The notes under the pieces: model-generated
What the model was told of the DNA's origin: nothing
What the model saw: only the letters and a program-made list of their open reading frames with translations
Databases searched by the model: none
Program-made: the position numbers and the translations under genes
Assembly: GCA_965243135.1 (NCBI GenBank)
Contig: OZ251539.1
Location: forward strand, 4,000,001-4,064,000
DNA length: 64,000 nt
Source: Alphaproteobacteria bacterium
GTDB taxonomy: Bacteria > Pseudomonadota > Alphaproteobacteria > MPNO01 > UBA830
Direction: 5' to 3'
Shown: positions 29,621 to 46,371 of the stretch, one piece after another
How the letters are laid out: every line of letters begins with the position of its first letter
Position numbering within the stretch: position 1 is the first letter of the stretch

Positions 29621-30077
29621 AGCCGGGAGCCATCCCGTTCGGACATTTCGGCGAGCGGCGCCCCCGCGAAAGGCGACGGCCGCCACTGTCGCTTTCCGGA
29701 GCCGGAACCCCGCGGTTCCGGGCACCGCGGCCGGGCGGCGATGCCAGCCATGCACCGCGTCTGGCGGGTCGCGCGCCTGGACGCCGAAATCGGCCTCCGG
29801 CTCGACGCCGCGACCGTGGGCCGTTTGCGGCACCGACAGCCGCTCGCTCACCAACAATCTCCCGCACCGGAGTGCGGGCGGCCGGGGCGCCGCGCAGCGG
29901 CTTTCGGCTTGCGCACCCGAAGGCGCGACGTTCGCACTTGCGCACGGCGACCGTGTCGGGCTGGTCGGCGCGAACGGCGGAACCGGCCGCCGCCTTCGAC
30001 GAAGCGCAAGCCGGGCCCGCGACGCAGGCGGCGGCCTTTCGCGGAGGCGGCTGTCGAAATGTCCGAACGGAAAACCG

Positions 30078-30258
30078 TTCAGGCGGCCTCGCAACCCGAC
30101 GACGTTGCGCTCTTCGCGGCTGAACTCCACCAAGTGGACCGAACGACGCCGGTACTTGTCCGCGTAGCCCATCTCCCGCAGCTGCGCGAGCGCGACCCCC
30201 TCCCGCCCGCGCTCCACCACCTTGAACTCGAACAGGTAGACGCGCCCGCCGGCGGCAA
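30078..30258 (-). pseudogene. 3' fragment of an AAA/PD-(D/E)XK gene (copy 1 type)
   Basis: AGGRVYLFEFKVVERGREGVALAQLREMGYADKY...EFSREERNVVG nearly identical to the copy 1 C-terminus, with deletions. Confidence 0.85.
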
Positions 30259-30327
30259 GGTGGACACAGATCATTTGGTACATGGACCGGACATATCATC
30301 CGTTACTGACAGGCCGGCGTCCGGAGC

Positions 30328-30356
30328 TTGCCGGAAGGCGCGACCGAACCTATACT
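30328..30356 (+). promoter_or_regulatory. Putative dksA promoter
   Basis: TTGCCG-17nt-TATACT. Confidence 0.5.
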
Positions 30357-30388
30357 TCGCGCCCCGTTTGCAGACCCGTTCGGCCCAT

Positions 30389-30805
30389 ATGACCCTGACA
30401 GTCCCGCCCGATTATCGGCCTTCGGAAGACGAACCGTTCATGAACGAGGCCATGCTGGAATATTTCCGGCGCAAACTGGTCTCCTGGCGGGAGGAACTGT
30501 TGCGCGAGACCGACGCGACGCTGCAACAGCTTCAGGGCGAATACGCGAGGGAAGCCGACATTTCGGATCGCGCCTCCGCCGAAACCGGCCGCTCGGTCGA
30601 GTTGCGGGCGCGAAACCGCGCCCGCAAGCTGATCGTCAAGATCGACGCGGCGCTGCGGCGCATCGAGGACGGCACCTACGGCTATTGCGAGGAAACCGGA
30701 GAGGCGATCGGGGTGCGGCGCCTCGAGGCGCGTCCGGTAGCGATGCTCAGCCTCGAAGCGCAGGAACGTCACGAACGGCTGGAAAAGACGCGGCGCGACG
30801 ACTGA
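30389..30805 (+). CDS. dksA: RNA polymerase-binding protein DksA (alphaproteobacterial type)
   Basis: DYRPSEDEPFMN, DISDRA, IEDGTYGYCEETGE, RLEARPVA. Confidence 0.95.
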   Translation: MTLTVPPDYRPSEDEPFMNEAMLEYFRRKLVSWREELLRETDATLQQLQGEYAREADISDRASAETGRSVELRARNRARKLIVKIDAALRRIEDGTYGYCEETGEAIGVRRLEARPVAMLSLEAQERHERLEKTRRDD

Positions 30806-31690
30806 GCAGGCGGGCCGGAGTTCCGTCGACCATGCCGTCGCGACCGCGCCGGCGCCGCCGAAAAGCATGGCTCCGAGGCCGCGAAGCCGTTCTTCGGACG
30901 GCCAACTCCGCGGCGGACGGAACGCAAAACTCAAGAATTGCGGCGATCGTCAATGCAAGCGCACGCAAAGCACCGCAAGCGCCCGCTCGCGACAGCTGGA
31001 TCATTTCTCAAGATAGATTTCCGACTGCGGCGTCCGTTCCTCCTCAACGGCTCGATCAGGAGAAGCCGACCGCGGCGGGTCGGAAATGCGGCGGCGAACG
31101 AACCCTGCGAAATTCGTTCGCGCCGCCGGCTCCCGGAAACGTTTCTGAATCAGGTTGCCGGGGTCGAGTTTCTCCCCGGCCCGCCTCAAGCGCCGCGTTG
31201 CCTTTCTCGGGACAGAGCGACGGAACGGTTCCCTCCGGAAATCGTTGCCGCGTTGGGGTTGCCGTTGCAGGGTCGGTGCTTCACTGCTGCAGTCGGCTCG
31301 ACCGCCGATCCTGACCGTGCGCATGGACGAACAGAACCGGCAGACGGATGACCGGTTCCGACTGATGACCGGCCAGACAGCCACGCATTTCCAGAGTCCG
31401 AGCGGCGCGCGTCAAGGGCAAGCTCTCCCTGATATTTTCCCAGGCCGGAGCCAACCGTCGGCCCAGGCGGCGGAATAGCGCGCCCGGCCGGGCCTCGCGA
31501 AGCCGCCCCGCTCGCGGGCCGGTCCGTTCCTCACGGCAGAGATTCCCGCTTGCCGCGCTTCGGAGCCAGGGAGCAAGGCCCCGAGACTCGCTCTGAGTTC
31601 ACCGCCGTAGCGCAAAGCGGGACGGCACGGACTTCACGCCGTCGCGGCGGAGCGGTCGGCGAAATAATGGCGCAGAACGAACCGTAGGGG

Positions 31691-31719
31691 TTGCGACACG
31701 CGGGACGTTCCAATAGAAT
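31691..31719 (+). promoter_or_regulatory. Putative tRNA promoter
   Basis: TTGCGA-17nt-TAGAAT, 11 nt before the tRNA. Confidence 0.6.
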
Positions 31720-31730
31720 TGCCGACGGTC

Positions 31731-31806
<76 letters not shown>

Positions 31807-31859
31807 GTTTCGCCAAGGGGCCGGCGCGACCCGCGCCGGCCCCGCACGACGCCGAGATC

Positions 31860-32603
31860 GTGAACGGCGCCTCTCGGGGGCGGCCGAACGGCGATCCCGG
31901 GCTTTCGGCCGCGCTGAACGACCTCGTCGCCGCCAACCGGATTCTCGCTCGCGAGGGCGTCGTCGACGGGTTCGGACACGTAAGCGTTCGGCATCCGACG
32001 ATTCCCGACCGTTACCTCTTGGCGCGCTCCCGCAGTCCGGAACTGGTTACGGCCGAGGACATAATGGAATTCACACTCGACGGCGCGGTCGCCGGAAACG
32101 ACGACCGCAAGCCCTACGCGGAACGCCACATTCACGGCGCGATACTGGAAGCCCGCCCCGACGTGAATTCGGTCGTTCACAACCATTCGCACGCGGTCCT
32201 TCCCTTCGCCGTCACCGGCGTTCCGCTGCGCCCGCTGATGCACGTGGCGGGCGTGATCGGCGAGAGCGCGCCGGTGTGGGACATCGCGGACAAGTTCGGC
32301 GAGACCAACCTGCTGGTCACCAACATGGCGCAGGGCAGAGATCTGGCGGCGACGCTGGGCGCCTCTTCGGTCGCGCTAATGCGCGGGCACGGTTGCGCGG
32401 TCGCAGGCGGCGGCGTCAGGGAAGCCGTGCTGACGGCGATCTACACCCAGATCAACGCGACGATCCAGTTGCAGGCAATGGCGCTCGGGGAAGTCAGATT
32501 TCTCAGTTCGGGGGAAGTCGCGCTCACGCCGGAAACGCTTATCGGACCGCTCGCGATGGAACGGGCCTGGGAATACTACGCACGGCGAGCCGGCGCGTTC
32601 TGA
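31860..32603 (+). CDS. Class II aldolase/adducin family protein (possible aromatic-acid decarboxylase)
   Basis: VDGFGHVSVRHP, ERHIHGAI, VVHNHS, LMRGHG; start approximate. Confidence 0.85.
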   Translation: MNGASRGRPNGDPGLSAALNDLVAANRILAREGVVDGFGHVSVRHPTIPDRYLLARSRSPELVTAEDIMEFTLDGAVAGNDDRKPYAERHIHGAILEARPDVNSVVHNHSHAVLPFAVTGVPLRPLMHVAGVIGESAPVWDIADKFGETNLLVTNMAQGRDLAATLGASSVALMRGHGCAVAGGGVREAVLTAIYTQINATIQLQAMALGEVRFLSSGEVALTPETLIGPLAMERAWEYYARRAGAF

Positions 32604-32646
32604 CGCGCGCGGGGAGACATTCTTTCGGGCGCAACGGCGTTCCCGC

Positions 32647-32676
32647 CTTGAAATCGCCAACCTCCGGCATCATATC
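32647..32676 (+). promoter_or_regulatory. RpoH (sigma32)-type promoter of hsp20
   Basis: CTTGAA...TCATATC upstream of a small heat-shock gene. Confidence 0.55.
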
Positions 32677-32737
32677 CGCATTGCCGAACGCCGTTCGCGG
32701 GTTCGGAGCGTGTTCTCGCTCGACGGAGGGGAATGGC

Positions 32738-33139
32738 ATGACGAGACTCCTCGAAAAACCGTTTTCGCCTGGCGCCCTCGACACAGTCTCGAAATCCGCC
32801 GCCGGGTATCCGCCTTACGATATCGAACGCATCGGCGAGCAGAACACGCGCATCACGCTCGCCGTCGCCGGCTTCTCCCGGCGCGATCTCTCGGTCTCGA
32901 TCGAGAACGGGCAGTTGGTGATCCGCGGACGTCAGGAAGATCGACCGCAACGCAAGTTCCTTCATCGAGGCATCGCATCCCGCCGTTTCCAGCGCTCCTT
33001 CGTCCTAGCGGACGGCATCGAAGTCGTCGACGCGAAGTTGGACAACGGCCTTCTCCGCATCGATCTGAGGAGACCCGAAAGGGAAGCCGCGTCGCGTTCG
33101 ATCAGGATCCAGGCCGCGCACGCGGAAAAAACCTCCTGA
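32738..33139 (+). CDS. Small heat-shock protein Hsp20 (IbpA-like)
   Basis: GYPPYDIE, ITLAVAGF, FLHRGIASRRF, LDNGLLRIDL. Confidence 0.92.
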   Translation: MTRLLEKPFSPGALDTVSKSAAGYPPYDIERIGEQNTRITLAVAGFSRRDLSVSIENGQLVIRGRQEDRPQRKFLHRGIASRRFQRSFVLADGIEVVDAKLDNGLLRIDLRRPEREAASRSIRIQAAHAEKTS

Positions 33140-33182
33140 ACGGAAACCCCGAAGCGGCGAAACTGCAAACCGGAGACAGGAC

Positions 33183-33398
33183 ATGCAGGGCAGAGAACCA
33201 AGCATATCCAAGCGCGATCTGGCCGTGCTCGGCCTGCATCGGCTCGCCTATGTGAAACCGGTCCGCAGTGAAAACGACATGGTCCAGCTCGCCATTTACG
33301 CCGCCGACGGAACCCGGCTCGCGACCATGGACAACCAGCGTGACCTCGCGTTCGCGGCAATTCGGCAGCACGATCTCGAGCCGGTCAGCGTTCATTGA
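33183..33398 (+). CDS. DUF1150-family small protein
   Basis: LAYVKPV, IYAADGTRLA, AAIRQHDLEPVSVH; usual neighbour of hsp20 in alphaproteobacteria. Confidence 0.85.
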   Translation: MQGREPSISKRDLAVLGLHRLAYVKPVRSENDMVQLAIYAADGTRLATMDNQRDLAFAAIRQHDLEPVSVH

Positions 33399-33600
33399 GC
33401 GGACGGGGCCGGGGAAGAAAACGGCGACGCGCCGACGGCGGGGAAAAGGCGAAGCGTCATCCGCCAAGCATCGGAATTCGACAGTCGAGCGTCGCGGCAG
33501 ACCCACGAAATCAATGCGCGCTCTTCCTCCGCTTCCGGTATGTTCGTGTCCGGGAAGCGGGCATTCCGAACCGAACTTCGGAGGAGGCCGCGGCGCAGGC

Positions 33601-34785
33601 ATGGAATGGCCGGATATATCGTCGCGCATAAGGGTCGGGGAGGATCTGCGAACCGAGTTCAGGCGCGATCTCGACCTCGCCGCTGTGGGCGAGGCGATCT
33701 GCGCCTTCGCGAATACGGACGGCGGAGCAGTTATTCTTGGGGCCGAAGATTCGGGAAAGATCGTTGGCGTAGACGACAACCCGGAAGCGGTGCAGGAACG
33801 GTTGACCGGATTCCTGCAATCGGGTTTCAGCGCTCCGGTCGCGGCGCGCTGCGGGCGGCATCGGCATTCGAACGGCTGGGTGCACTGGATCGCGGTGCCC
33901 CGCATTCGCGGCTTCGACCCTCTTCGTTTCCGTGGACGATTTTACGTCCGACGCGCGCGGAGCAGCGTGGAGCCTTCTCCCCATGAACTTCAGGAGTTGT
34001 TCAATGTCTTCGGTTTCGTGTTTACCGAGAGGCAAACGATTCCAGCGGCGAGCGTCGAAGACATCGACATTCATGCGTTCCGTTCATTCCTGAGCGGTCG
34101 AGGCACGGAAAAAGAACCGCAACCCTGCGACGATTTACGCAATGCGCACGTTCTCCGCGATGCCGACGGAGCGTTGCGCCCCACCCTATACGGGCTTATG
34201 GCCTTCGGCAGAGATCCCCAAGCGTACCCGCACACGGGAAACTTCTGGATTCAGTGCACCGCGTATGCGGGCCGCGACAGAGCGTCGGAGGTAATTCTGG
34301 CCGGGGAAGGCAAGGGGCGTCTCGACGAGCAGGTGCGCCGAGCCCTCGGCTGGACCAAGAGCCTGGGGCGGACTGAAACCTACGCTGGCGTTCTCCGTGA
34401 AGACCGCCCGCTGATTCCCGAATCGGCGCTTCGCGAAGCGCTGGTGAATGCGGTCGTCCATCGCGACTACGCGATCGTCGGATCGCCCGTGATGCTTGAA
34501 GCGTTCTGCGACCGGGCTACGGTGACGAGTCCCGGCACGCTTCCCAACCGTATGACGGTCGAGAGCGTGCAGTTCGGCGGCTTGCCCCGCTCTCGCAACG
34601 AATGGATGGCGAACGCGATGGTCGTGGCGCGCCTGACGGAGGGCCGAGGTCTCGGATGGCTGCGGATGCGTCGCACGATGGAGGAATTCAACGGCACCGA
34701 ACCCGAGCTCGTCAACGACGAGGGCGGCAAGTTCGTCCGGGTAACGTTCCGGTTGAAGCCGCGGTCCGCCGAGAGCGAGACGTGA
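33601..34785 (+). CDS. Schlafen/AlbA_2 domain + HATPase_c_4 protein
   Basis: GEDLRTEF, ICAFANTDGG.VILG, ALREALVNAVVHRDY, VTSPGTLP, SRN, GRGLG. Confidence 0.88.
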   Translation: MEWPDISSRIRVGEDLRTEFRRDLDLAAVGEAICAFANTDGGAVILGAEDSGKIVGVDDNPEAVQERLTGFLQSGFSAPVAARCGRHRHSNGWVHWIAVPRIRGFDPLRFRGRFYVRRARSSVEPSPHELQELFNVFGFVFTERQTIPAASVEDIDIHAFRSFLSGRGTEKEPQPCDDLRNAHVLRDADGALRPTLYGLMAFGRDPQAYPHTGNFWIQCTAYAGRDRASEVILAGEGKGRLDEQVRRALGWTKSLGRTETYAGVLREDRPLIPESALREALVNAVVHRDYAIVGSPVMLEAFCDRATVTSPGTLPNRMTVESVQFGGLPRSRNEWMANAMVVARLTEGRGLGWLRMRRTMEEFNGTEPELVNDEGGKFVRVTFRLKPRSAESET

Positions 34786-35804
34786 CGCCCAGGCGGCGCG
34801 GGCCGTTGCCGATTGCAGCGTTCCCTTGCAAGAGCATCGACCGGTTCGCCATCGGCGCCAAAGGCGGCGCAGCGGCCGGAGCGAACCGGATTCTCCATGA
34901 AGGCAGAGAGAAACGCAGGGCGGCTCGGCGAGGCGCTTTGCGCCGCCGGGACGATAGGCCGCTCCATTCGCCGGGTGGTTCGTCTGCGGGCGGCGCCTGC
35001 CCGCTCGGTGGCGATCTTTCGGCCCGCAGCCTCGTCCTGATCGTCGAGGCAAGCGCGCCATTCAAGGCCGGAATCCGGAATCTCCACGTTACCGGATGAC
35101 CGGCGAACAGAACGTGAGGCAGTCAACTTGTCCAGGAAAACGCCGACAAACGAAACCCGAGCCGCACCGCCGCGGCGACCAAGCGGCTTCTTGCGATCAG
35201 GCTGTTTCTCGTTACGCCGAACCTCCGGGATCCGTCGCGCCAATTCGCCGCGCAACCCCGGACGAAACGGAGGCCGCCGCGAGGACGGAAGCGCAGCAGC
35301 TGCGGTCGCCGGGAATCAGGAGAGTCGAGGCATGCATAGCGCGCCCCGGGATAACGAACCGCTGGCGTTTCCTGCGTCGTTGGAAACGCTGCGAACCGGA
35401 ACATCCCGGAGGCCGAGATGGAGCGAATTTTCGGGGTGAACGCGAAAGCCCTCGCCTGCCGCCGGAAATCTTCGACGACGCATCGGCGATTCTTGGGTCG
35501 CAGACGGCGCGTACTCCGTACCCAAGCCGCAACGAGTCTGGACGCCCGCCGTCGGCTCCTTCCCGCCCAAGCGCGGTTCCGGAAGCCGGAGTTTCAGGGA
35601 GGCGGAGAGAGTTTCATGCGCGGAAGAGCCGTGCGGCGGGTCGCCAAGCGACGAACCCGCCACTGGCGGAAACCGACCTTCGCGTCAGTCTGCGTTCGTT
35701 CCGGCAGCCTCGCTCTGGCCGCGCCGGACGAACGGATTCTTGTCTGCATGACGCGGCGGCGTTCGAACGGGGGCAGCCGCCGCCCCGGAACCCCGTTCAC
35801 GCGG

Positions 35805-35840
35805 AAAAAAGAAAGGGGGGCGACTTTCGCCGCCCCCCTT
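35805..35840 (-). terminator. Rho-independent terminator of porin A
   Basis: Minus strand AAGGGGGGCGGCGAAAGTCGCCCCCCTT hairpin followed by a U-rich tract. Confidence 0.8.
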
Positions 35841-35863
35841 CGGTGCGTTCCGTCCGGTTCGGA

Positions 35864-36946
35864 CTAGAAGGCGACCTTGATGCCCGTGGTGTAGGCAGTG
35901 CCGTCCTGGGACTCGCTGCCCGCCTCGTATTCCGCCCACAGGGCGTCGAGCGACCACGTCACGCCCGCCCCGAGGCTGCGCGAATACGACAGCCGGCCCG
36001 CCGAGGTTTCCCGCTCCATCTTCTCGAGGTGGATGTAGCCCAAGGAGACGGCGTGCGGCCCCCAGGAGTAGCGTCCGCCGATGTCCCAGCGGTCGAGTTC
36101 GTCGCCGCCAGCTTTCGTGACTTCGTTATGCCGCACGTAACCGACGCCGACCTTGACGCCCGAGAAATCGACCCACAGGCCGCCGCCCCAGTTCTGCGGA
36201 TCGTCATCCATCGTACTCTGAGCATCCGCCGTGACGTAGCCGAAAGCTGCGCCGACCTTGGTGTCGCCGTGTTTCTGGTTATAGTTCACCGCGGCCGCGA
36301 CGATGTCTTTCGCCCCCATCGCCGTACTGTGCAGTTGTTTGCTGTCCTCGGCACCGGATCGCGAATAGGAGACGCCCATCTGGAAGCCGTTGAAGCGCGG
36401 CGTGTAGTAGGCCACGGTATCGCTGTCGCTGCTGATGTTCACGCGACCGCTCGCGGCACCGAGCGCATCGTCCGCCTTGGTATCTGTCGCTGCTCCAAGG
36501 TTGTTCGGAATCCAGTCGCCGACGTCGAATTCCAGCGTCTGGTTGCCGGTGCCGGTGGAAACGCTGCCGTGATAGCCGAACGTCATCTCGTAGCCGGCCT
36601 CGTCAAGGGCGCCGATCTGGATCTGGCCGAAGTCGCCCGAGACGAAGAACTTGGTCTCGTCGGTGGGGTCGGAGCTACCATCGATGTTGCCTTCGAGCTC
36701 GACCACCGTCGAAATGGTGATGCCGTTGTCCAGCGGCGCCTTGCCCTTGAAGTGGACTTCGACGTCCTGCTGCACGCCGATGCCGTCCTGGCCGTCGACA
36801 TCGTTGTCGCCGACGCCGACATTGGCTTCCCAGTAAGCGCTCATGGACAGCGACGGCTTCATCTTGTCCTGCGCGACGGCCGCGCCCGACAAGGCCAGTG
36901 CGCCGACGGCCGCCAGCGCAGTGGATGCGAGGAGATGTTTCTTCAT
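35864..36946 (-). CDS. Porin A (alphaproteobacterial Gram-negative porin)
   Basis: MKKHLLASTAL signal peptide; EVHFKG..LDNG, VELEG, YYTPRFNGFQMGVSY; terminal Phe. Confidence 0.92.
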   Translation of the reverse strand: MKKHLLASTALAAVGALALSGAAVAQDKMKPSLSMSAYWEANVGVGDNDVDGQDGIGVQQDVEVHFKGKAPLDNGITISTVVELEGNIDGSSDPTDETKFFVSGDFGQIQIGALDEAGYEMTFGYHGSVSTGTGNQTLEFDVGDWIPNNLGAATDTKADDALGAASGRVNISSDSDTVAYYTPRFNGFQMGVSYSRSGAEDSKQLHSTAMGAKDIVAAAVNYNQKHGDTKVGAAFGYVTADAQSTMDDDPQNWGGGLWVDFSGVKVGVGYVRHNEVTKAGGDELDRWDIGGRYSWGPHAVSLGYIHLEKMERETSAGRLSYSRSLGAGVTWSLDALWAEYEAGSESQDGTAYTTGIKVAF

Positions 36947-36986
36947 GGATCCCTCCGAAACATGGTCAAACACAAAGAGGGAAACG
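36880..36986. repeat. Left arm of 107-bp inverted repeat (porin 5' UTR + signal peptide)
   Basis: Reverse complement matches 39868-39974 with one mismatch. Confidence 0.92.
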
Positions 36987-37070
36987 CCGGATCATTTCGC
37001 AGCACCGCCCTCAACCTTGATCGCAGCAGGCACCCTTCCGAAGCAGACGCTTGCCGCGTTCACAAGGATG

Positions 37071-37154
37071 CTTTTACGCCGAAACGGTCGCCGTCTCAAG
37101 AGCCAGCGCATACCGTTGCAAAAAAAGGACACAGACTGTGGCATTTTTGCAACA
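37071..37154 (-). promoter_or_regulatory. Putative porin promoter with upstream imperfect palindrome
   Basis: Minus strand TTGAGA-17nt-TAAAAG (37099-37071); TGTTGC-AAAAAT-GCCACA at 37137-37154. Confidence 0.45.
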
Positions 37155-37327
37155 TCCGGAATCCTGAGGAGCGGGCATCCATCCTGCCGCGCCGTACGGC
37201 GAAGCGAACATGGGCCGGCGGAGCGGCGATGCGTGCGCACCCGGAGGCGTCCGTCGTCTCCCGAGAGATCCAGGCGTTCCAGCGGCAGCGCCCTGCTTGA
37301 CGGCAGGCGTCAACCGAACGCGGCCGG

Positions 37328-38524
37328 TCACCATGGGCGTTCCGGCGCGTCTTTCGAAATCGCCGGGCGGGAAGACGCAGGAGAACCCGTCGGCTGCTTC
37401 CCTTCCATGGCGGCGGAGATGGCGGCGCCTACCCGCTCGGCCGCCGCTTCGACCTCGCGGTCGGCGACATGCGCGTACCGCAGCGTCGTCCGGACTTGCC
37501 TGTGGCCGAGAAGCCTTGCGACGACCGGCAGCGAAACGCCTCGCAACACCGCCTGACTGGCGAAGGTGTGGCGCAAATCGTGCAGCCGCGCATCTTCGAT
37601 TCCGGCCTGTCGCCTTACCCTGTACCAGAGCGGGAGATTGTCCGAGCAGGGCCGCGCGGGATTCGAAGGAGAGGGGAAAACGTACGGGCTTTCCGTTCGC
37701 GGCTGGCGTTCGAGTATCCGGCGAGCCGCGGCGTTCAGGAGAACCTTGCGCGGTCCCGTCTTGCTGTCCCCGAGATTGAGCATGTCTCCGTCGAAGTCCC
37801 GCCAGCGCAGCCCGACGATCTCTCCCTTGCGGCAACCGGTCAACAGCAGAAGGCGGATCATGTCCGCCTGGCGGCTCGTTCTCTCGTTCGCGTAACCGTC
37901 CAGAACCCGATGCAGGCGGCGGATTTCCTCTCGCGAAAGGAACCGGGTGAGCTTGCGGCGCGGGTTCGGTTTCACGCACCGGGCCGGGTTTGACTCTATG
38001 AAGGCGCAGGCGATCGCGTAGTTCAAAATCTGGCGCAGCGTCTTGAGCGCCTTGTTGGCTCCGTCCGGAGCGGTCAGGCTGTAGGCGTCGAACCACGCTT
38101 CGATCCCGATCCGGACGATCCGATGGAGCGGCAGGCTTCCGAAAACCGGCAGCAACTGGGTTTCGAGAATGCAATCGACGCCTTTTTTCGTCGACGGCTT
38201 GTACCGGTCATAGCAGGCGGTCTTCCAAAGCCCCGCGACGAACTCCCGGAACGGCGGAGACGAATTCGGGGGAGCGGGCACCTCGGTACCTGCGAGGACG
38301 AGGCATTCGCGGCGCGCGGAGCCGACGCTTTTCAACGCCGCCGGACCGAGCGAAAACTTCCTCGCCCGGTCGCCGGACCTGCAGCAGCACACGTAGCTCC
38401 GGCTTCCAGCGGGCCGGACCCTGACGCCGAATCCCGCCGCCCGCGCATCCCAGACCGTGTACTCCCTGCTTTCCGGTTTGAGCCGGGCGACGCCGGCGTC
38501 CGTCAAACGCATTCTCCTCGCCAT
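37328..38524 (-). CDS. Tyrosine recombinase/integrase with arm-binding N-terminal domain (second of pair)
   Basis: VWDARAAGFGVRV; LLLLTGCRKGEI, DSKTG, HDLRHTFAS, LLGH, TLRYAH: full catalytic set. Confidence 0.93.
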   Translation of the reverse strand: MARRMRLTDAGVARLKPESREYTVWDARAAGFGVRVRPAGSRSYVCCCRSGDRARKFSLGPAALKSVGSARRECLVLAGTEVPAPPNSSPPFREFVAGLWKTACYDRYKPSTKKGVDCILETQLLPVFGSLPLHRIVRIGIEAWFDAYSLTAPDGANKALKTLRQILNYAIACAFIESNPARCVKPNPRRKLTRFLSREEIRRLHRVLDGYANERTSRQADMIRLLLLTGCRKGEIVGLRWRDFDGDMLNLGDSKTGPRKVLLNAAARRILERQPRTESPYVFPSPSNPARPCSDNLPLWYRVRRQAGIEDARLHDLRHTFASQAVLRGVSLPVVARLLGHRQVRTTLRYAHVADREVEAAAERVGAAISAAMEGKQPTGSPASSRPAISKDAPERPW

Positions 38525-38527
38525 CTT

Positions 38528-39625
38528 TCAGCCTTCCAGAATCTCGCCGACGGCCTCTACGGCCTGGCGGACCGCCGCATCGGCCAAATGAGCGTATTTG
38601 AGGGTGCTCGCCGGATCGCGATGTCCGAGCAATCGTCCGATGGTGAGCACCGTCTCGCCTTGCGCGAGGGCCATGCTGGCGTACGTGTGGCGCAAGTCGT
38701 GCAGTCGGATGTCGCCCAGACCCGCTTCCTCTCGAATTTTCCGCCAGAAGCGTCCGAGCGACTTCTTATCCACGGTCGCTCCGCGCAAGTGGAAGACCTG
38801 CTTCCCCTCTTGATCCAGCCCCGCCAGCAGTTCGCGGGCGGCGGCGGATAGCCAGACGGTTCGCGGTCCTGTCTTTCCATCCGCAAGAAACAGCTTGCCG
38901 TCGCGGTAGTCGGTCCATTTCAGGCTCATGATCTCGCTCTTGCGGCACCCCGTCAGAAGCAACAGCCTGATCGCCGCCACATGGAGCGGCTTCGCTCCGT
39001 CGTGGCGAGCCAGCGCCGCAGCCAGACGGCCGATTTCGTCCGTCGACATGAAACGTTCCCGGCCTGCGCCGCCGTATCGCTTGATCCCCCTGCACGGATT
39101 GCTGTCCTCCGGCCTGTAGCCGTAAAGCTCTGCCTGCCGCATGATGACGGAGAGAATCGGGATGGAACGATCCGCCGCCGCCGGCGTCTCGCGCAGCGAG
39201 GCGAACCATTGCCTGACGTCCTCCTTCGCGATCTCGGCAATGCGTTTCCCCTTGAACCACGGCAGGATCTTGCTCCGATAGTTGCTGCAATTCACTGCAA
39301 GGGTGCCGGCTTTCCAGCGGCGGCCGTAACGCCGAAACGCTTCCTCTGCGACGGCCTCGAAAAGAGTTTCCCCGGCCGGGGGTTCGTGCCTGATCGCGGA
39401 CAAGGCCGCGGCTGCGCTCGATCGGGCCTCGTCGGCGCTGACGGTCTCGGCTCCGCCCAGGGATTTCCAGATGCGCCTGCCGTCGCGCTGGCTGTGCAGG
39501 AAGTAGCTCTTCTTTCCCGAAGGGCCGACCCGTACGCCGAAACCCCTCAGGTCGGCGTCCCGGACTTCGTAGACGGTTTTGCGCGGCTTGAGAGCGTCGA
39601 CGCGGCGCTGGGTAAGATGACGCAT
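38528..39625 (-). CDS. Tyrosine recombinase/integrase with arm-binding N-terminal domain (first of pair)
   Basis: VRDADLRGFGVRV; LLLLTGCRKSEI, DGKTG, HDLRHTYAS, LLGH, TLKYAH; 3 bp from the next integrase. Confidence 0.93.
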   Translation of the reverse strand: MRHLTQRRVDALKPRKTVYEVRDADLRGFGVRVGPSGKKSYFLHSQRDGRRIWKSLGGAETVSADEARSSAAAALSAIRHEPPAGETLFEAVAEEAFRRYGRRWKAGTLAVNCSNYRSKILPWFKGKRIAEIAKEDVRQWFASLRETPAAADRSIPILSVIMRQAELYGYRPEDSNPCRGIKRYGGAGRERFMSTDEIGRLAAALARHDGAKPLHVAAIRLLLLTGCRKSEIMSLKWTDYRDGKLFLADGKTGPRTVWLSAAARELLAGLDQEGKQVFHLRGATVDKKSLGRFWRKIREEAGLGDIRLHDLRHTYASMALAQGETVLTIGRLLGHRDPASTLKYAHLADAAVRQAVEAVGEILEG

Positions 39626-39867
39626 GCGCTTTTCCCTATGCAATCGGTTGCAGTCGGGGCAAGCGCCGCTTGGGGTCGCAATCGCACCAAAAAGCGCTGC
39701 ACGGCCTAAGCTCCTCGGCGCGGACTCCCGTCGGCCGGGTTATGACCGCTTCCCGGAGATCCGTTGCAGATGGGGCGAAAAAGCGCCCTGTTTCGAGCTT
39801 TCGGCTTATTCGCGCCGAAAAAAAGAAACCCGCATTTCAACGAGTTAGACCGAGGCAGCGTTTCGGA

Positions 39868-39974
39868 CGTTTCCCTCTTTGTGTTTGACCATGTTTCGGA
39901 GGGATCCATGAAGAAACATCTCCTTGCATCCACTGCGCTGGCGGCCGTCGGCGCACTGGCCTTGTCGGGCGCGG
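39868..39974. repeat. Right arm of 107-bp inverted repeat
   Basis: CGTTTCCCTCTTTGTGTTTGACCATGTTTCGGAGGGATCCATGAAGAAACATCTCC...GGGCGCGG. Confidence 0.92.
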
Positions 39975-40969
39975 ATGCCGCGCAGGACAAGAAGACGACG
40001 GAGCCGTCGCTTACCGTTAGCGGCAACTGGGAAGCCAACGTCGGCGTCGCCGACAACGATGTCGACGGCGAGGACGGCATCGGCGTGCAGCAGGACGTCG
40101 AAGTCCACTTCAACGGCGGGGTGGTTCTGGACAACGGCATCACCGTTTCGACGGTGGTCGAGCTCGAAGGCAACACCACAGGCGACACCATCGACGAGAC
40201 CAGGTTCGTCGTCTCGGGCGACTTCGGACAGATCCAGATCGGCAGCATCGACGAGGCCAGCTACGAGATGACGTTCGGCTATCACGGCTCCACTGGAAAC
40301 AGAAACACCGGCAACCAGACGCTGGAATTCGACGTCGGCGGGTGGGTTCCGAACAGCATCGACGGTCTCGGAGCCTCGGCCGGTCGCGTGAACCTCACCA
40401 ACGACGCCGATACCGTCGCCTACTACACGCCGCGCTTCAACGGCTTCCAGATGGGCGTCTCCTATTCGCGGTCGGCTGCTGCGGGGGACAGCGCACACTT
40501 GCACACTACGGCGGGTATGATGAAGGACATCGTCGCGGCCGCCATCAACTACAACCAGAGGCACGGCGACACCGGGGTCGGCGCGGCTTTCGGCTACGTC
40601 ACGGCGAATGAGCCGAATCCGGCGATGGACGATCCCCAGAACTGGGGCGGCGGCCTCTGGGTCGATTTCTCGGGCGTCAGTGTCGGCGTCGGTTACGTGC
40701 GGCATAACGAAGTCACGAGAGCTGGCGGCGACGAACTCGACCGCTGGGATATCGGCGGACGCTACTCCTGGGGGCCGAACGCCGTCTCCTTGGGCTACAT
40801 CCACCTTGAAAGGATGGAAGAGGAAACGGCGGCGGGCAAACTGTCGTATTCGCGCGGCCTCGGGGCGGGCGCGACATGGTCGCTCGACGCCCTGTGGGCG
40901 GAATACGAGGTGGGCAGCGAGTCCCAGGACGGCACCGCCTACACCACAGGCATCAGGTGGCGCTTCTAG
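39908..40969 (+). CDS. Porin B, paralogue of porin A
   Basis: Same signal peptide and conserved strand motifs as porin A; differences cluster in short loop-like blocks. Confidence 0.92.
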   Translation: MKKHLLASTALAAVGALALSGADAAQDKKTTEPSLTVSGNWEANVGVADNDVDGEDGIGVQQDVEVHFNGGVVLDNGITVSTVVELEGNTTGDTIDETRFVVSGDFGQIQIGSIDEASYEMTFGYHGSTGNRNTGNQTLEFDVGGWVPNSIDGLGASAGRVNLTNDADTVAYYTPRFNGFQMGVSYSRSAAAGDSAHLHTTAGMMKDIVAAAINYNQRHGDTGVGAAFGYVTANEPNPAMDDPQNWGGGLWVDFSGVSVGVGYVRHNEVTRAGGDELDRWDIGGRYSWGPNAVSLGYIHLERMEEETAAGKLSYSRGLGAGATWSLDALWAEYEVGSESQDGTAYTTGIRWRF

Positions 40970-40982
40970 TCCGGACCGGACG

Positions 40983-41016
40983 GAAGGAAGCGGCGAAAGC
41001 CGCTTCCTTCATTTTG
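40983..41016 (+). terminator. Rho-independent terminator of porin B
   Basis: GAAGGAAGCGGC-GAAA-GCCGCTTCCTTC followed by ATTTTG. Confidence 0.8.
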
Positions 41017-41088
41017 GCTGAGTCGCTTCCGCGGTGCTTTTCAATCAAGCAGAAGGCTTCTTCTTTTTATGAATCCTGCGGCAGTTTA

Positions 41089-44000
41089 ATGAGCGCCAGA
41101 GCCGGTACAGGCGTCGTCTCTGGCAGGAAAACGCTCGTACGCCTCTCGCCACGTCGCGAGTTCAAAACGCCGGATGCCGCCATCGCAACACGAAAAACCG
41201 CCCGAGCAAAGAGGTATGTCCTGATCCAACTTTGTCGCAAAAAGCTGATCGCGGATTCTTGCCCCCCCCCCCCCCGAAATCTGAAGCTCGTCGCGCTGGG
41301 CGGGGCCGCGGCTTTTCTGCTGGCTTTTCCGGCCATGTCCTTTGCGCAGCAGGACTGCGGCAGCGCCGTTCGAGGCAGCTACAATAGCGAAACCGGAGTT
41401 TTCTCCGCGGGAACGTCCGCTACGGACGTCGACTACAGGGTGGCTTGCACGGAGGACGACGGAGACTCCGTGATCACGCTGCCGACGGGTCTTTCGCTGC
41501 CGAACGCCGTTTCCGACTCGTACGTGGTGATCGAGGTCGCCGGGTCGGGAAGCGTTCGCAATTTTCAGCCCGGCGCCTGGAAATACGTCGTGAAGACTCC
41601 CGACGACTTCCGGACGGAAAACACGAACGACGCCCTCGGGCACGGCCTGTACTTCCGTAGCGGGAGCGGCGACGTGCGCGTCGAGCTGCGCGGCGCGGCG
41701 ACCACCCGCGGAGCGGGCGCGACCGGCATGCGGGTGCGGGTCGACGGCGGCGGCAAGGCGACGGCGGTCAACATGGGAACGATCGCCACCCATGGCGACA
41801 CGCACACCTCCAGCGCGGTCGGCACGTTCATCCTGCCGGCCTACGGCGTCTACGCGCAAGCGGAGCAGGGCGACGCCGAAGCGGTGAACCGCGGCGAGAT
41901 CTCGACGGGCGGCGATGGAGCGAGAGGCATCTTCGCGCGGGCCCGCGGGTCGGCGGTGGCGACCAATCACGGGAGGATCACGGTTTCCGGTCCTCCGCAT
42001 GTCTCCGGCTCGGAATACCGGTCTCCGCACGGCATTTTCGCATGGGGCGGGACGGCGGAGGCCGCCAATTTCGGGACGGTCGAAACGCGGGGCGACCGGG
42101 GACGCGGCGTCTACGCGCGCGGGAGCGCCGCGACGGCGACCAATCGCGGCACGATCGTCACCCGCGGCAATCGCGCGGGCGTGGAAGGAAATTTCCTCTC
42201 GGCAATGGGAGTGGCCGCCCAATCGGGCGGCGACGCGACGGCCGTGAATGCCGAGGGCGCCGCGGTGGACACCTACGGCACGAATGCCGACGCCCTGTTC
42301 GTCCGGTCGGGTACCGGAGACGCGAACGCCGTGAACGCGGGCGCGCTTCGCACGCACAATACGGTATCGGATCCCGCCAACAGGCTCGCGCTCGCCGCCG
42401 AAGGCATCTACGCGCGTTCGGACAGCGGCAACGTCACGGTCGTGAACGAGGCGACGGGATCCGTGCGGACGGCGGGCCCGAGGACATGGGGCATCCATGC
42501 GAGAACGAACGGCGACGGCGCGGACGCTTCCGCAACGGTGACGGTCACGAACCGGGGCAGCGTGGAGACCCAAGGGTCGAACGCGGACGGCGTCGTGGCG
42601 GCAGCGTATCACGGCGGCAGCGAAGCCAACCCCAACGCCGTCACGACGACCAGTGCCGGACTCGTCAGGACGCAGGGCGACATGGCCAGCGGCATCATCG
42701 CCGCGGTGGACGTCCGCGACCGCGGAACCTCCTTCGGCTCCGCGCGGGCGGAGAACGCCGGCACGATCTCGACGTCCGGCGGACCCGGCGACGGAACGGA
42801 CCCGACGCAGACCGCGTCCGGAGTGGTCGCCGCCTTTTTCAGCACGTCGGACGACGCGATCTCCGACGCCGGAGACGCGACCGCGATCAACAGCGGAACG
42901 GTGACCGTCGCCGGCGCGGGCGCGGCCGGACTCGTCGCCCGGACCTACGGGTCCGGCGCGGCGACGGTGGAAATGAACGGCGGCGCCGTCGTCGCCTCTT
43001 CCGCGGACGACCCCGCGACGACGGCCGACGAGGGCGGCATCGGCATATGGGCCGCCACGGGCGCGTCCGGCAGGGCTTCGGTGACGGTCGGAAACGCGGC
43101 TGTCGTCCGGGCGCCGGTTGCGGCCCGGCTCGACGGCGGCTCCACGAGGCTCGACCTTTCTTCCGGCTGGCTCGTCGGCGACGTGCGCTTCGGGAGCGGC
43201 GACAACACCCTGAACGTCAGGCGATCAGGCGTCATCGTCGGCGACGTGACCTTCGGCGGCGACAGCGGGAACACAGTGATCCTCGACGCCTCCTCGACGG
43301 CAGGGGTCGTCGGCATTCAGGGTTCGATCACCGGGCTTGAAACCATGCTCAAGCGCGGCCCCGGCGTCGCACGCGTGCGCGACGTGACTTTCTCCGGCTC
43401 CCGGCTTGCGGTCGAGGACGGCATGTTGTCGGTTCGCGGCCATCTCGACCTGGGCGGCGACGGCGCCGTCACGATCGAAAACGCCGGCAGGCTGCAGGTG
43501 GAGGTCGGCGACCTTGCCGGCAATCCCCAAGACCACGGACGGATCACGGCTGGAAACGGGGTCCACTTCGAGGAGGGCGCCGAACGGACTGTCCGGGTGG
43601 CGCATGCTCCGGATCGCTCCGCCGCGCAGAGGACCGCTTCCGAACAAGTCCTCCAGACCGCCGGGATCGCAATCCTCGTCGACGGAACCCCTGCCGTCGA
43701 TGGACGGAATGAACAGTCGATTGGGGATCTGACCTTGACGACAGAAACGCCCGAAGGGACGGTGAACACGGTCGGCAACGTCTCTGTAGACGGTGTAGCC
43801 CAGATCAACCCGGGCGCGGAGTTGCCGACCGCCCGGAAGGAGGCCTCTCCACCCGGTGAACAGAAAGCGGACGCGCCTGAGGCTGCCGTGCCCGCCGTGA
43901 AGCGCAAAGACCGCAGGGATCGCCGTTTCCTGATCGGGGGAGGAGGGCTGTTCGCCCTGCTGATGTTCGCTTTCGACCCGTTCCACATGGTGGAGGCGGG

Positions 44001-44835
44001 CGGTTCGAGCGCCGCGGTCCAGCCGGCGGACGGCCGCGAGGGCGTCGAGGCGCGCGCGTTCACCGCGGACGCACGGGTGGCGGGGGGAACGATGCGCGGC
44101 GTGACGCTGGGCGTCGCTTCGCGGCTCGGCGGCGATCTCCATCTCGGAGTGTCGGCGACGCCCGCCCTTGCGGCGACGGCCGATTCCGGGGAGGCGCTGG
44201 AAGGGGGCCGGTTCGGGCTTCAGGGCCGCTGGCGGTCGGGCATCCTGGATATGGGGGCCAGCCTGTCTCACGGAACCTACGACGCCCGGTCGAAGTCCGC
44301 CAACCTCGAAGGGCTGGACAACCCGGAAGGCGTGTACGGACTGCGCCACGACCATGCGCAGATGCGCCTGGGCGCCCGCGTCGCCGCCGCCGGAATCGAC
44401 GTCGCCCCCTCGCTGTCGCTGTTCGGCGGCCGCCTGGAGCAGACGGCGCACACGGCGCGGTCCGCGGCTCTGCGCGCCGAAGTGCCGGCGCTGACCCGGC
44501 GCTACGGCGGCTGGAAGGCGCGGCTCGACCTCGGGCCGCAGGACTGGCTGCAGGCCGGCCCTGTCCGGTGGCGCCCGCGGCTGGGCCTCGCCGCGGCGCG
44601 GATCTCCACCGACGCTCCGGACGGGCTCCGGGTGCGCCAGTCCGACGCCGCCGGCGCGTTGAGCTTCACGACGCCGGCGCAGGCGGAAGCGCTGCCGCGG
44701 AGGATGCACGCGCTCGCCCTGTCGGCGTCCGTCCGCGGCGAAACCTGGAAACTGGACGGCGGCTACGTGGCGGCGATGGCGGCGGACGACAAGCCGGTCC
44801 ATGCCGTTGCGGCGCGGCTGAGCATCGACTTCTGA
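41089..44835 (+). CDS. Large autotransporter-like surface protein
   Basis: Signal-like LVALGGAAAFLLAFPAMSFA; repetitive beta-helix-like units (AVNxGxIxTxG..AxGIxA); C-terminal barrel ending ARLSIDF; start uncertain. Confidence 0.8.
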   Translation: MSARAGTGVVSGRKTLVRLSPRREFKTPDAAIATRKTARAKRYVLIQLCRKKLIADSCPPPPRNLKLVALGGAAAFLLAFPAMSFAQQDCGSAVRGSYNSETGVFSAGTSATDVDYRVACTEDDGDSVITLPTGLSLPNAVSDSYVVIEVAGSGSVRNFQPGAWKYVVKTPDDFRTENTNDALGHGLYFRSGSGDVRVELRGAATTRGAGATGMRVRVDGGGKATAVNMGTIATHGDTHTSSAVGTFILPAYGVYAQAEQGDAEAVNRGEISTGGDGARGIFARARGSAVATNHGRITVSGPPHVSGSEYRSPHGIFAWGGTAEAANFGTVETRGDRGRGVYARGSAATATNRGTIVTRGNRAGVEGNFLSAMGVAAQSGGDATAVNAEGAAVDTYGTNADALFVRSGTGDANAVNAGALRTHNTVSDPANRLALAAEGIYARSDSGNVTVVNEATGSVRTAGPRTWGIHARTNGDGADASATVTVTNRGSVETQGSNADGVVAAAYHGGSEANPNAVTTTSAGLVRTQGDMASGIIAAVDVRDRGTSFGSARAENAGTISTSGGPGDGTDPTQTASGVVAAFFSTSDDAISDAGDATAINSGTVTVAGAGAAGLVARTYGSGAATVEMNGGAVVASSADDPATTADEGGIGIWAATGASGRASVTVGNAAVVRAPVAARLDGGSTRLDLSSGWLVGDVRFGSGDNTLNVRRSGVIVGDVTFGGDSGNTVILDASSTAGVVGIQGSITGLETMLKRGPGVARVRDVTFSGSRLAVEDGMLSVRGHLDLGGDGAVTIENAGRLQVEVGDLAGNPQDHGRITAGNGVHFEEGAERTVRVAHAPDRSAAQRTASEQVLQTAGIAILVDGTPAVDGRNEQSIGDLTLTTETPEGTVNTVGNVSVDGVAQINPGAELPTARKEASPPGEQKADAPEAAVPAVKRKDRRDRRFLIGGGGLFALLMFAFDPFHMVEAGGSSAAVQPADGREGVEARAFTADARVAGGTMRGVTLGVASRLGGDLHLGVSATPALAATADSGEALEGGRFGLQGRWRSGILDMGASLSHGTYDARSKSANLEGLDNPEGVYGLRHDHAQMRLGARVAAAGIDVAPSLSLFGGRLEQTAHTARSAALRAEVPALTRRYGGWKARLDLGPQDWLQAGPVRWRPRLGLAAARISTDAPDGLRVRQSDAAGALSFTTPAQAEALPRRMHALALSASVRGETWKLDGGYVAAMAADDKPVHAVAARLSIDF
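41262..41275 (+). repeat. C14 homopolymer tract in the 5' coding region of the autotransporter
   Basis: TTG-CCCCCCCCCCCCCC-GAAAT; by eye the longest homopolymer in the window. Confidence 0.9.
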
Positions 44836-45212
44836 CCGTCTCCGCCCGCCTCCTTTCCCCCGCAGGGAGGCGGGCGGCGCGCCGAAAGTGCAGGCGCTTG
44901 CGCTGAAAGCGACGGAGCTTGCGGCAGTTGGAGCGCGACGCAACCGGTCAGCCGGGATTGGGCGAACCCGTACCGACCTTTGGGATTTTCCGGTTGCGCG
45001 ACGCACGCAAGGCTCGCCGCGTCGCAGTTGAAAAAGAACCTGGAAAGCCGAACCTGCGGCCAGCCGCACGGCCTTCGGAAGCGCCCGGCCTATCCCATGC
45101 CGGAGGCGTTATGTTGCCATGGTGCCCCCAGCCGGTTCGTCGCGGCAATCGTCCCAAAGGCGCGTGGTTCCGCTGCGGCGCCGAAGCAGGGCGGGACGCC
45201 CGGCCTCGCCCG

Positions 45213-45509
45213 CTATTCCGCCGCCTCGGCCGGCGGCTCCTTCCGGTGCTCGGCGAAAGTCTCGAGCAGGTCGAACTTGCCCTCGACGCGTGCCACTCGC
45301 TCGCTCAGCTTCCGGAACTGCTCGCTCATCTCCCGGAACTGCTCGCTCATCTCCCGGAACTGCTCGTTCATCTCCCGGAACCGTTCGTTCATGTGCAGGG
45401 CAAGAGCGTCGATCCGGCGGTCGAGCCGACGGCCTTGCTGAAGAACCAGCCCGACAATCGCAATGCCGACGCCAAGCATGGTGATGATTTCGGGGGAAAA
45501 CTCTTCCAT
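45213..45509 (-). CDS. Small N-terminally anchored coiled-coil protein, copy 1 (98 aa)
   Basis: MEEFSPEIITMLGVGIAIVGLVLQQ + 21-bp (heptad) repeats [N/S]E[Q/R]FREM; RBS GGAGG; TTGCGC-17nt-TACGTT promoter. Confidence 0.8.
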   Translation of the reverse strand: MEEFSPEIITMLGVGIAIVGLVLQQGRRLDRRIDALALHMNERFREMNEQFREMSEQFREMSEQFRKLSERVARVEGKFDLLETFAEHRKEPPAEAAE

Positions 45510-46371
45510 GAACTGCCTCCGTCGAGAAATTGAACGTATGCCAAACGTTCGCGCTGCGCAACCTTCTTGAGCCGTTTGCGCCATGCCATTTTTTATTGGC
45601 CCGCCGCCCGGCCGGTACCCCGCGGTCCGCTCCGCCCGCTTGCAAGGGTCGCGCAGGCGGGCGACTGCGAAACAAAATGGACTGTTGATCCGACGCCGTC
45701 GGCGCGCTGAGCTTCACGACGCTGGCGCAGGCGGAAGCGCTGCCGTGGACGATGCACGCGCTCGCCCTGTCGGCATCCACCCGTGGCGAAACCTGGAAGC
45801 TGGACGGCGGCTACGTGGCGGCGATGGTGGCGGACGACAAGCCGGTCCATGCCGTTGCGGCGCGGCTGCGCATCGACTTCTGACCGTCTCCGCCCGCCTC
45901 CATTCCCCCGGAGGGAGGCGGGCGGCGCACCAAAAAATGCAAGCGCCTGCGTTGAAAGCGACGGAGCTTGCGGCCGTTGAACCGCGGCGCAACCGGCTGG
46001 TCGGAACTGGACGAACCCGTACCGACCTTTGCGATTTCCGGTTGCGCGACGCGCACAGGGCTCGCCGCGCCGCAGCCGAAAGAAAACTCGGAAAGCCGAA
46101 CCTGCGGCGAAAACCGGCCGCGCTGCCTCCGGAAGCGCCCGGCCTTTCCCATGCCGGAGGCGCTATGTTGCCGTGGCGCCCCCAGCCGGTCCGTCGCGGC
46201 AACCGTCCCCAAGGCGCGTGGTTCCGCTGCGGCGACGAAGCTTGGGGGAAGTCCGGGCAGTTTCCCGAGACCGCGCCCCGGAACTCCGGAGCGCGGCGGG
46301 CGGCAGCCGCGAGAGAAGGCTGATCGGCGAACTCTGGCGCCGAAGCGGGGCGGGACGCCCGGCCTCGCCCG

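Follow-up and report, generated by a model that had tools for sequence, protein, structure and literature searches.

Two porin genes that point away from each other, with two integrase genes enclosed between them, raise the question of whether the integrases decide which of the two porins is made. Such a locus lies in the stretch studied here, 64,000 nucleotides (nt) of an alphaproteobacterial genome (G000:C1:4000001-4064000; hereafter the window), the host genome being a single contig of 6.1 Mb with 65% G+C. Porin A (coding sequence 35864..36946, minus strand, ATG at 36946, 360 amino acids plus stop) and porin B (39908..40969, plus strand, ATG at 39908, 353 amino acids plus stop) are divergent and point outwards, and between them lie int1 (37328..38524, 398 amino acids) and int2 (38528..39643, 371 amino acids as listed, with the conserved start MRHLTQ), two tyrosine integrase genes that are both on the minus strand. 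A first-pass annotation of the sequence had proposed that this segment inverts and carries a promoter from one porin to the other. The anatomy of a switch is present, with inverted repeats flanking a segment that holds recombinase genes, and an effect on expression would follow from it: a flip driven by the integrases, with the choice of the expressed porin as its outcome, is in our judgement plausible, with somewhat less than an even chance. The geometry of the locus fits this proposal, as do its recurrence and the position of a sharp sequence boundary in relatives; the promoter evidence and the origin of the integrase pair in a mobile family speak less well for it.

The two porin genes share an inverted repeat (36880..36986 and 39868..39974) that is 107 nt long with a sole mismatch at 36929/39925, as first annotated, and that spans 40 nt of leader, the GGAGG ribosome-binding site and the first 22 codons, which specify the signal peptide. 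Each arm comprises exact runs of 58 and 49 nt. The abrupt end of identity described for the inner side was also found: the inner flanks are unrelated, and 229 of 2000 shuffles matched the observed local alignment score. Outward of the 107 nt, similarity continues over the whole genes and for about 20–50 nt past their stops, yielding a whole-gene inverted repeat of 1.15 kb (left arm 35841..36991, right arm 39863..40992) with blocks of 86–94% identity, a mean column identity of 89% and 89% nucleotide identity over the 1.3 kb aligned. The 107 nt do not form a discrete site; they are the best-conserved tip of an inverted duplication of the porin gene that measures 1.15 kb. The inner segment between the 107-nt arms (36987..39867, 2881 bp) consists of the two integrase genes and of two flanks: flank a (36987..37327, minus strand), which runs from the int1 stop to the repeat, and flank b (39644..39867), which is the int2 upstream region and aligns with seven other integrase pairs. 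Both are unique in the genome, flank b by blastn. None of the three open reading frames (ORFs) of the inner flanks, including an 82-amino-acid ORF in flank a, matched Pfam at E 0.1, and no excisionase-like genes were seen there.

Both outer genes encode porins (Pfam Porin_4, 128.7 and 123.8 bits against a cut-off of 27; E 5e-37 for porin A and 2e-35 for porin B), which are 80% identical at the amino acid level. Their codon alignment contains 252 identical, 27 synonymous, 70 non-synonymous and 15 gapped codons, with the differences distributed in patches; judged from this alignment, the duplication is young and unusually rich in protein changes. General porins have a signal peptide, a 16-strand barrel, a long third loop and a C-terminal aromatic residue. 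Both proteins end in F, and an AlphaFold2 model of porin A (mean predicted local distance difference test score, pLDDT, 79.9; predicted template modelling score, pTM, 0.78) is a 16-strand barrel in which a loop of 60 residues connects strands 5 and 6. The model was computed from 19 aligned porins, an alignment that drew on the 13 loci recovered by scanning a genome collection with porin A, all of them distant (27–35% identity) and none a near relative. By the convention used for OmpF, in which odd-numbered connections are outer loops and which we followed in assigning loops, porins A and B differ at 42 of the 105 predicted outer-loop positions and at 35 of the 221 strand and turn positions (Fisher p 3e-6). 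As loop positions differ more, and as the periplasmic turns do not differ at any of their 21 positions, the copies have diverged mainly where the model predicts exposure to the outside.

The integrases appear intact. Tyrosine recombinases use a catalytic set of R, K, HxxR, H/W and Y. A pattern search located R229, K255, H315xxR318, H341 and Y350 in int1 and the corresponding R, K, HxxR, H and Y in int2; both genes are open and both match Pfam Phage_integrase (76.5 and 66.4 bits, cut-off 27.1; E 3e-21 for int1), with additional matches to Phage_int_M in int1 and to Phage_int_SAM_3 and Arm-DNA-bind_3 (E 5e-10) in int2. The inner segment had been said to hold nothing but two intact arm-domain tyrosine integrases. 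Intactness is borne out, the arm domain being called by Pfam for int2 alone: int1 gave no arm DNA-binding match at E 0.001, and it may have such a domain in view of its 38% identity to int2 over residues 4-369. The stop codon of int2 lies 3 nt ahead of the int1 start, so that the two form a two-gene operon, and the same 3-nt spacing is repeated in the loci L029, L030, L047, L050 and L057.

We then asked whether the arrangement recurs. Close homologues of the porins (38–52% amino acid identity) are present in all five genomes of the genus, and in four of the five they stand beside an integrase pair. The synteny search suggested at first pass thus recovered the complete porin-int-int-porin layout in one relative, G004, and relics of it in G001 and G002. 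In G004 (L047) the order is P1(+), P2(-), int2(+), int1(+), P3(+): P2 and P3 are inverted repeats of 93–96% identity across a 2.8-kb integrase segment, laid out as in the window, P1 and P2 are 99% identical and convergent, and the integrases and porins are intact. In G001 (L050), a 5' fragment of int2 with its palindrome (see below) adjoins porin Pa, and a second porin, Pb, which is oriented towards Pa, follows a complete int2-int1 pair on its own strand, with hipBA-like genes in between. In G002 (L048), an int2 fragment likewise adjoins Pa, with a 100% identical inverted copy, Pb, 2.3 kb away, an IS66 fragment between the two and a lone int2-type gene upstream. The porin of G003 is not linked to an integrase pair. 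The genes that surround the module differ from species to species, so that the porins and the pair seem to move, or to be retained, as a unit. Further afield, none of five other-genus genomes with related pairs had one near a porin match, among the integrase matches listed; metagenomes contained no exact match to a 43-nt leader pattern, and the 62 metagenomic matches to an int1 pattern did not include a relative.

The clearest pointer to the integrases comes from the region upstream of int2. Close copies of the pair conserve about 100–130 nt there, in the order GTTGCA..GGGG, an A-run, TCAnnnnGTTAG, the palindrome ACCGAAGGTGCG, 7 variable nt and GTGT; in the int2 sense, TCAnnnnGTTAG reads as a TTGACA-like -35 box. 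Flank b of the window has GTTGCA..GGGG, the A-run, TCAA..GTTAG at 39835-39848 (TTGAAA, -35-like in the int2 sense) and a degenerate palindrome at 39849-39860 (9 of 12 positions, three mismatches), from which 7 nt lead to the repeat. Of the 12 related loci scanned, among which the window's own copy is not counted, 10 have the palindrome with no more than one mismatch, and the two without it are those for which int1 alone was fetched; in 8 of the 10 no porin stands beside the pair. Past the int1 stop, no sequence is conserved among the pairs. By these alignments the conserved unit is the palindrome, the int2 promoter region, int2 and int1; an island or small element would be expected to have an integrase end of this kind. 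From the int2 start to the repeat, the whole sequence can be aligned with what precedes int2 in porin-free pairs. In the porin-flanked modules of the window and of G004, the int2 upstream region is duplicated, with an extra tandem copy of about 100 nt; the extra copies lie at L047 11289-11517, with a second palindrome at L047 11399, and at 39644-39760 of the window, where the copy is degenerate. Six aligned pairs that are not flanked by two porins, including the G001 C173 pair near Pb, have a single copy.

Identity among the porin copies of a genome sets in abruptly, at a single position before the ATG: at 40 nt in the window (two copies), at 45 nt in G004 (three copies), and at 13 nt in G001 (three copies) and G002 (two copies). 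The three porin copies of G004 have three unrelated upstream sequences, and the leaders of the three groups are mutually unrelated. On the int2 side, this boundary falls 7 nt (window), 4 nt (G004) and 1 nt (G001) past the palindrome. The first shared letters in G004 include GTGTCGC, which the porin-free locus L030 has equally far past its palindrome. These positions hint, more strongly than any other computed result, that rearrangements of the porin copies occur at the end of the integrase unit, and such rearrangements would be site-specific. Alternatively, the boundary could date from one old junction that subsequent gene conversion has left in place.

Gene conversion does appear to operate among the porin copies, since copies within a genome are more alike than copies from different species. 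This bears on a second explanation of the locus, in which RecA-driven exchange between the 1.15-kb inverted porin repeats flips the segment, or converts parts of one porin with the other, as in the sap locus of Campylobacter fetus, and the integrases are bystanders. In its favour, the repeat is long and similar (89%, with the two exact runs at the tip); the homogenisation within genomes (99% for P1 and P2 in G004, 100% in G002), set against divergence between species, is a mark of gene conversion; and the patchy differences between porins A and B agree with it. However, exchange of this kind leaves unexplained why, in three species, the cassette boundary falls where the int2 upstream region ends, and why an intact integrase pair lies between the porins in two species. 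We consider it unlikely.

How would a flip affect expression? Each porin has its own terminator, as annotated before: a hairpin at 35812..35841 (minus strand; a 13-pair stem with 9 G-C pairs, then a T run) lies 3' of porin A, and another at 40983..41010 (plus strand; a 12-pair stem with 8 G-C pairs) lies 3' of porin B. A promoter-like module had been recognised on the porin A side only. A strict scan of 35500-41300 returned no promoter. A relaxed scan did return one match on that side, a 9/12 match at 37099-37071 on the minus strand, within flank a (TTGAGA, 17 nt, TAAAAG); at least one such match occurred in 19% of 500 shuffles, and the scan missed the int2 promoter, which is expected on the other side, so that it cannot show the absence of a promoter. 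Upstream of this match, at 37110-37150 on the minus strand, flank a also contains an inverted repeat of 10 nt (GTTGCAAAAA / TTTTTGCAAC) whose halves are 19 nt apart. On the minus strand, a terminator-like site was not detected from int1 to porin A. Porin A begins 340 nt past int1 on the same strand, and P3 of G004 and Pb of G001 are equally placed relative to int1. Since the sequence from int2 to the repeat aligns throughout with the upstream region of porin-free pairs, there would be no room for a private promoter of porin B, and the sole promoter expected in flank b reads towards int2. In the assembled state, porin A should thus be transcribed and porin B should not.

The switch that we propose would be a module for varying porins, with the integration operon of a mobile element as its core and two inverted porin cassettes on either side of int2-int1. 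Each cassette would extend from about 40 nt before the ATG to its own terminator, without a promoter of its own; the only promoters would be those of the inner segment, namely that of int2 and possibly a second one past int1. Transcription would run through int2 and int1 into whichever porin lies past int1, which is porin A in the assembled orientation. Recombination within the shared 5' ends or at their inner edge, with int2 and int1 as the most likely catalysts, would invert the 2.9-kb segment, and porin B would then be the one transcribed. Because the porins differ mainly in their predicted surface loops, such a flip would alter the surface seen by phages or other outside agents while pore function is kept.

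Several results weigh against a programmed flip, and many of them concern the company that the pair keeps. Three further copies of the int2-int1 unit, at about 70% nucleotide identity, are present in the same genome, where they adjoin a Type ISP restriction-modification enzyme, IS66 transposases and an AAA-ATPase/PD-(D/E)XK protein; none of the three has a porin or a long flanking inverted repeat. Related genomes contain dozens of integrase matches, arranged as adjacent pairs. G036 (L052-L056) has at least five copies of a distant pair (35–38% amino acid identity to int1/int2) in rearranged surroundings, and the five copies fetched are 99.7–99.9% identical over about 2.1–3.1 kb; this pair looks like an active two-integrase mobile element whose ends are undefined. 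On this distribution, int2-int1 is a member of a multi-copy mobile family and not a dedicated invertase. Trees were built from hand-picked rows, 12 int1-type and 14 int2-type proteins, the broken or contig-cut int1 of L031, L060 and L073 being left out. They are unresolved inside the clade, so that monophyly of the porin-linked pairs, which we had considered, was not retained as no supported clade groups them; the sole porin-linked pairing is that of the G001 and G002 int2 copies (support 100/100), and the nearest relatives of int1 (66% identity) have no adjoining porin. The recombination site is a further difficulty. With its 9/12 palindrome, the site in the window may have decayed, and the inner flanks do not contain an inverted copy of the int2-side motif: a regular-expression search up to 450 nt past int1 in eight pairs gave nothing convincing, and the inner-flank alignment scores of G004, like that of the window, did not rise above shuffles (1193 of 2000 for P3/P2 and 1947 of 2000 for P1/P2). 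Two full recombination sites in symmetric arrangement are therefore not seen. The porin loci of G004 and G002 contain remnants of IS66, so that insertion sequences may account for some of the rearrangements. The evidence for a promoter is weak. Finally, the other orientation was seen in no read, contig or related genome, contigs being unable to resolve orientation for the reason given below.

Most of these observations would equally be met by a static relic: the integration module of an island or small element landed by a porin, or travels with one, nothing programmed flips, and the second porin is an ordinary inverted duplicate, possibly left by a rearrangement due to the element or to an insertion sequence, each porin having its own promoter. 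The multi-copy, mobile character of the family, the defence and insertion-sequence contexts of the other copies in this genome, the degenerate palindrome of the window and the lack of a porin-linked clade in the trees all agree with this explanation. So do the species-specific flanks of the module, the tRNA-Ala gene 4 kb away, the IS66 pieces inside the G004 and G002 porin loci and the scrambled G001 and G002 loci with their int2 fragments. Yet four of the five species of the genus keep porins beside the pair, always with an inverted second copy, and chance would hardly place a sharp cassette boundary at 1-7 nt from the palindrome in three species whose leaders are unrelated. In addition, the integrases and porins are intact in the window and in G004, and a search of the window for an att-type direct repeat of the tRNA was negative. 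A static relic is, in our view, somewhat doubtful as a full account of the locus.

Some details of these mobile relatives and of their surroundings are worth recording. The paralogous int2-int1 pair at L030 6991-9189 (G000:C1:2853993-2856191) has an exact palindrome, and its neighbour at L030 10556-15331 is a 1591-amino-acid Type ISP enzyme (Mrr_cat_2, ResIII, N6_Mtase, Type_ISP_C); the two may form an island with a defence gene. In G036, the surroundings of the pair copies are shuffled and contain other repeats.

Twenty sequencing runs, none of them recorded as RNA, contain part of the stretch, and four were examined as Logan contigs, which are built from 31-letter words. With exact runs of 49 and 58 nt in the tip of the repeat, both orientations yield the same 31-letter words, and such contigs cannot resolve orientation. 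In run X1 the 107-nt repeat forms a contig of its own at a depth of 63.5, compared to 37.7 for its neighbours (about 1.7x), a ratio that fits two copies of the repeat in the reads; in both X1 and X2, contigs end 30 nt inside the repeat. In X4, from a near-identical strain at 2-4x depth, one contig passes from porin A (36779-36986) into 13 letters that are the reverse complement of 39855-39867, in the flank that adjoins porin B in the assembly, and an opposite-strand joint, 36746/40113, connects homologous points of the two porins that share 43 letters. We did not retain these contigs as evidence for or against inversion: all of their words are present in the assembled orientation too, and they can arise when exact repeats of more than 30 nt are assembled from words at low depth and gaps in coverage remove branches. 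X5, which bears the same organism label and comes from another sample, has zero depth over 38979-39683 (the N-terminal half of int2 and sequence upstream), a loose end at 38866, and a depth over porin B that is several-fold above that over the integrases; this pattern may reflect strain differences at the locus.

A last explanation extends the role of the integrases. Int2-int1 would be a two-subunit recombinase acting at a palindrome-ended site and treating promoter-less porins as exchangeable cassettes, which would make the module a mobile, integron- or shufflon-like porin exchanger. Cassettes would join the palindrome within a 7-nt crossover zone and be inverted, copied or swapped between copies, the whole module would move between genomes, and the integrases of a mobile element would act as invertase. 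We regard an exchanger of this breadth as quite improbable.

The wider neighbourhood of the module in the window was also inspected. A tRNA-Ala(GGC) gene at 31731-31806, 4 kb from porin A, was the only feature detected by Rfam over 30000-46000; no match of 12 nt or more to it occurs elsewhere in the window, on either strand, so that a genomic-island direct repeat was not found and an island border is not set. After the tRNA gene, 33268-34785 encodes a 505-amino-acid protein with SLFN_AlbA_2 and HATPase_c_4 domains. Directly after porin B, a plus-strand ORF of 1319 amino acids (40876-44835) has many GDATAVN-type repeats and a C-terminal F; it has no Pfam or NCBIfam match at E 0.001, and its first ~190 nt (upstream and N-terminal region) have an 86% paralogue at genome position 1027927. 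This ORF looks like an autotransporter-type surface protein.

If the proposed flip takes place, integrases of a mobile-element family would work, as a pair, as an invertase, and a marine alphaproteobacterial genus would offer a simple two-state system in which to study how porin function is traded off against pressure from phages or predators; unexplained tandem integrase pairs, of which related genomes have many, could likewise rearrange neighbouring genes. If it does not, the locus would be an ordinary mobile-element scar beside a duplicated porin.

Among known systems, the module resembles several and coincides with none of those compared here. In integrons, the integrase gene is transcribed away from a neighbouring recombination site, and past that site come cassettes without promoters, which begin shortly before the ribosome-binding site. 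The window differs in having no attC-like element after the porins, cassettes that are inverted and not head-to-tail, and two integrases; classification of these as integron integrases was rejected, the NCBIfam models scoring 48.7 and 32.8 bits against a cut-off of 265. The fim switch of E. coli is served by FimB and FimE and has 9-bp repeats around a 314-bp segment without recombinase genes; its recombinases have no arm domain, and it turns expression on or off. It is like the window in its two adjacent tyrosine recombinase genes, which lie by the invertible promoter segment, and differs in that the module proposed here would choose between two genes. In the sap locus of Campylobacter fetus, oppositely oriented surface-protein paralogues with conserved 5' ends lie on either side of an invertible segment with a single promoter, and expression is either/or; inversion is RecA-dependent, and the segment carries secretion genes and not recombinases. 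Opposed paralogues with shared 5' ends around a segment are common to sap and the window, whereas the sap products are S-layer proteins and not porins, and recombinase genes are found within the segment only in the window.

Tandem tyrosine recombinases are also known from RIT and similar elements, which are closely spaced, multi-copy in alpha- and betaproteobacteria and considered mobile from their distribution; RIT elements consist of ritA, ritB and ritC, of the simple (Xer-like) type, with overlaps of 4-8 bp (PMC3414803, PMC8138268). The window has two genes 3 nt apart instead of three that overlap, with an arm domain called by Pfam for int2. An assignment to RIT was rejected, as there are only two integrase genes in 36987-39867 and no third in the flanks, and so was filing under bipartite modules, which join one recombinase to one unrelated protein. 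In the excerpted text of these accounts, the elements described are trios, or a recombinase with an unrelated partner, and not pairs of the int2-int1 type (PMC3414803, PMC8138268).

Known cases of surface switching by DNA inversion mostly concern TonB-dependent transporters of Bacteroidota, S-layers, pili and tail fibres. The targets named in a survey of gene-altering inversions are TonB-linked outer membrane proteins, tail fibres, HsdS and PilV, the word porin being absent from the portion of its text available to us (PMC9881135). Among the papers that our literature searches listed, no title or opening of an abstract described a general porin switched by a tandem integrase pair. The nearest parallel is the BT1040-BT1046 locus of B. 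thetaiotaomicron, in which, according to the part of the report available, the tyrosine recombinase BT1041, whose gene lies among three susC-like genes, transfers the full-length 5' end from one of these to another at a 7-bp site; polymerase chain reaction revealed every variant, a recombinase mutant lost them, and a role in phage evasion was proposed (10.1101/521070). Both loci have a recombinase gene among paralogous outer-membrane channel genes, and in both the promoter-proximal part moves, or would move, by way of shared 5' ends. However, as far as that partial account goes, BT1040-BT1046 has a single recombinase, TonB-dependent transporters, a host from the Bacteroidota and a site in the coding 5' end, and its rearrangement was demonstrated experimentally, whereas the window has two tandem integrases, general 16-strand porins and an alphaproteobacterial host. 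The module of the window is thus distinct by its channel type, by its taxon, by its two tandem integrases of a mobile family and by a boundary that lies in the leader and not in the coding sequence.

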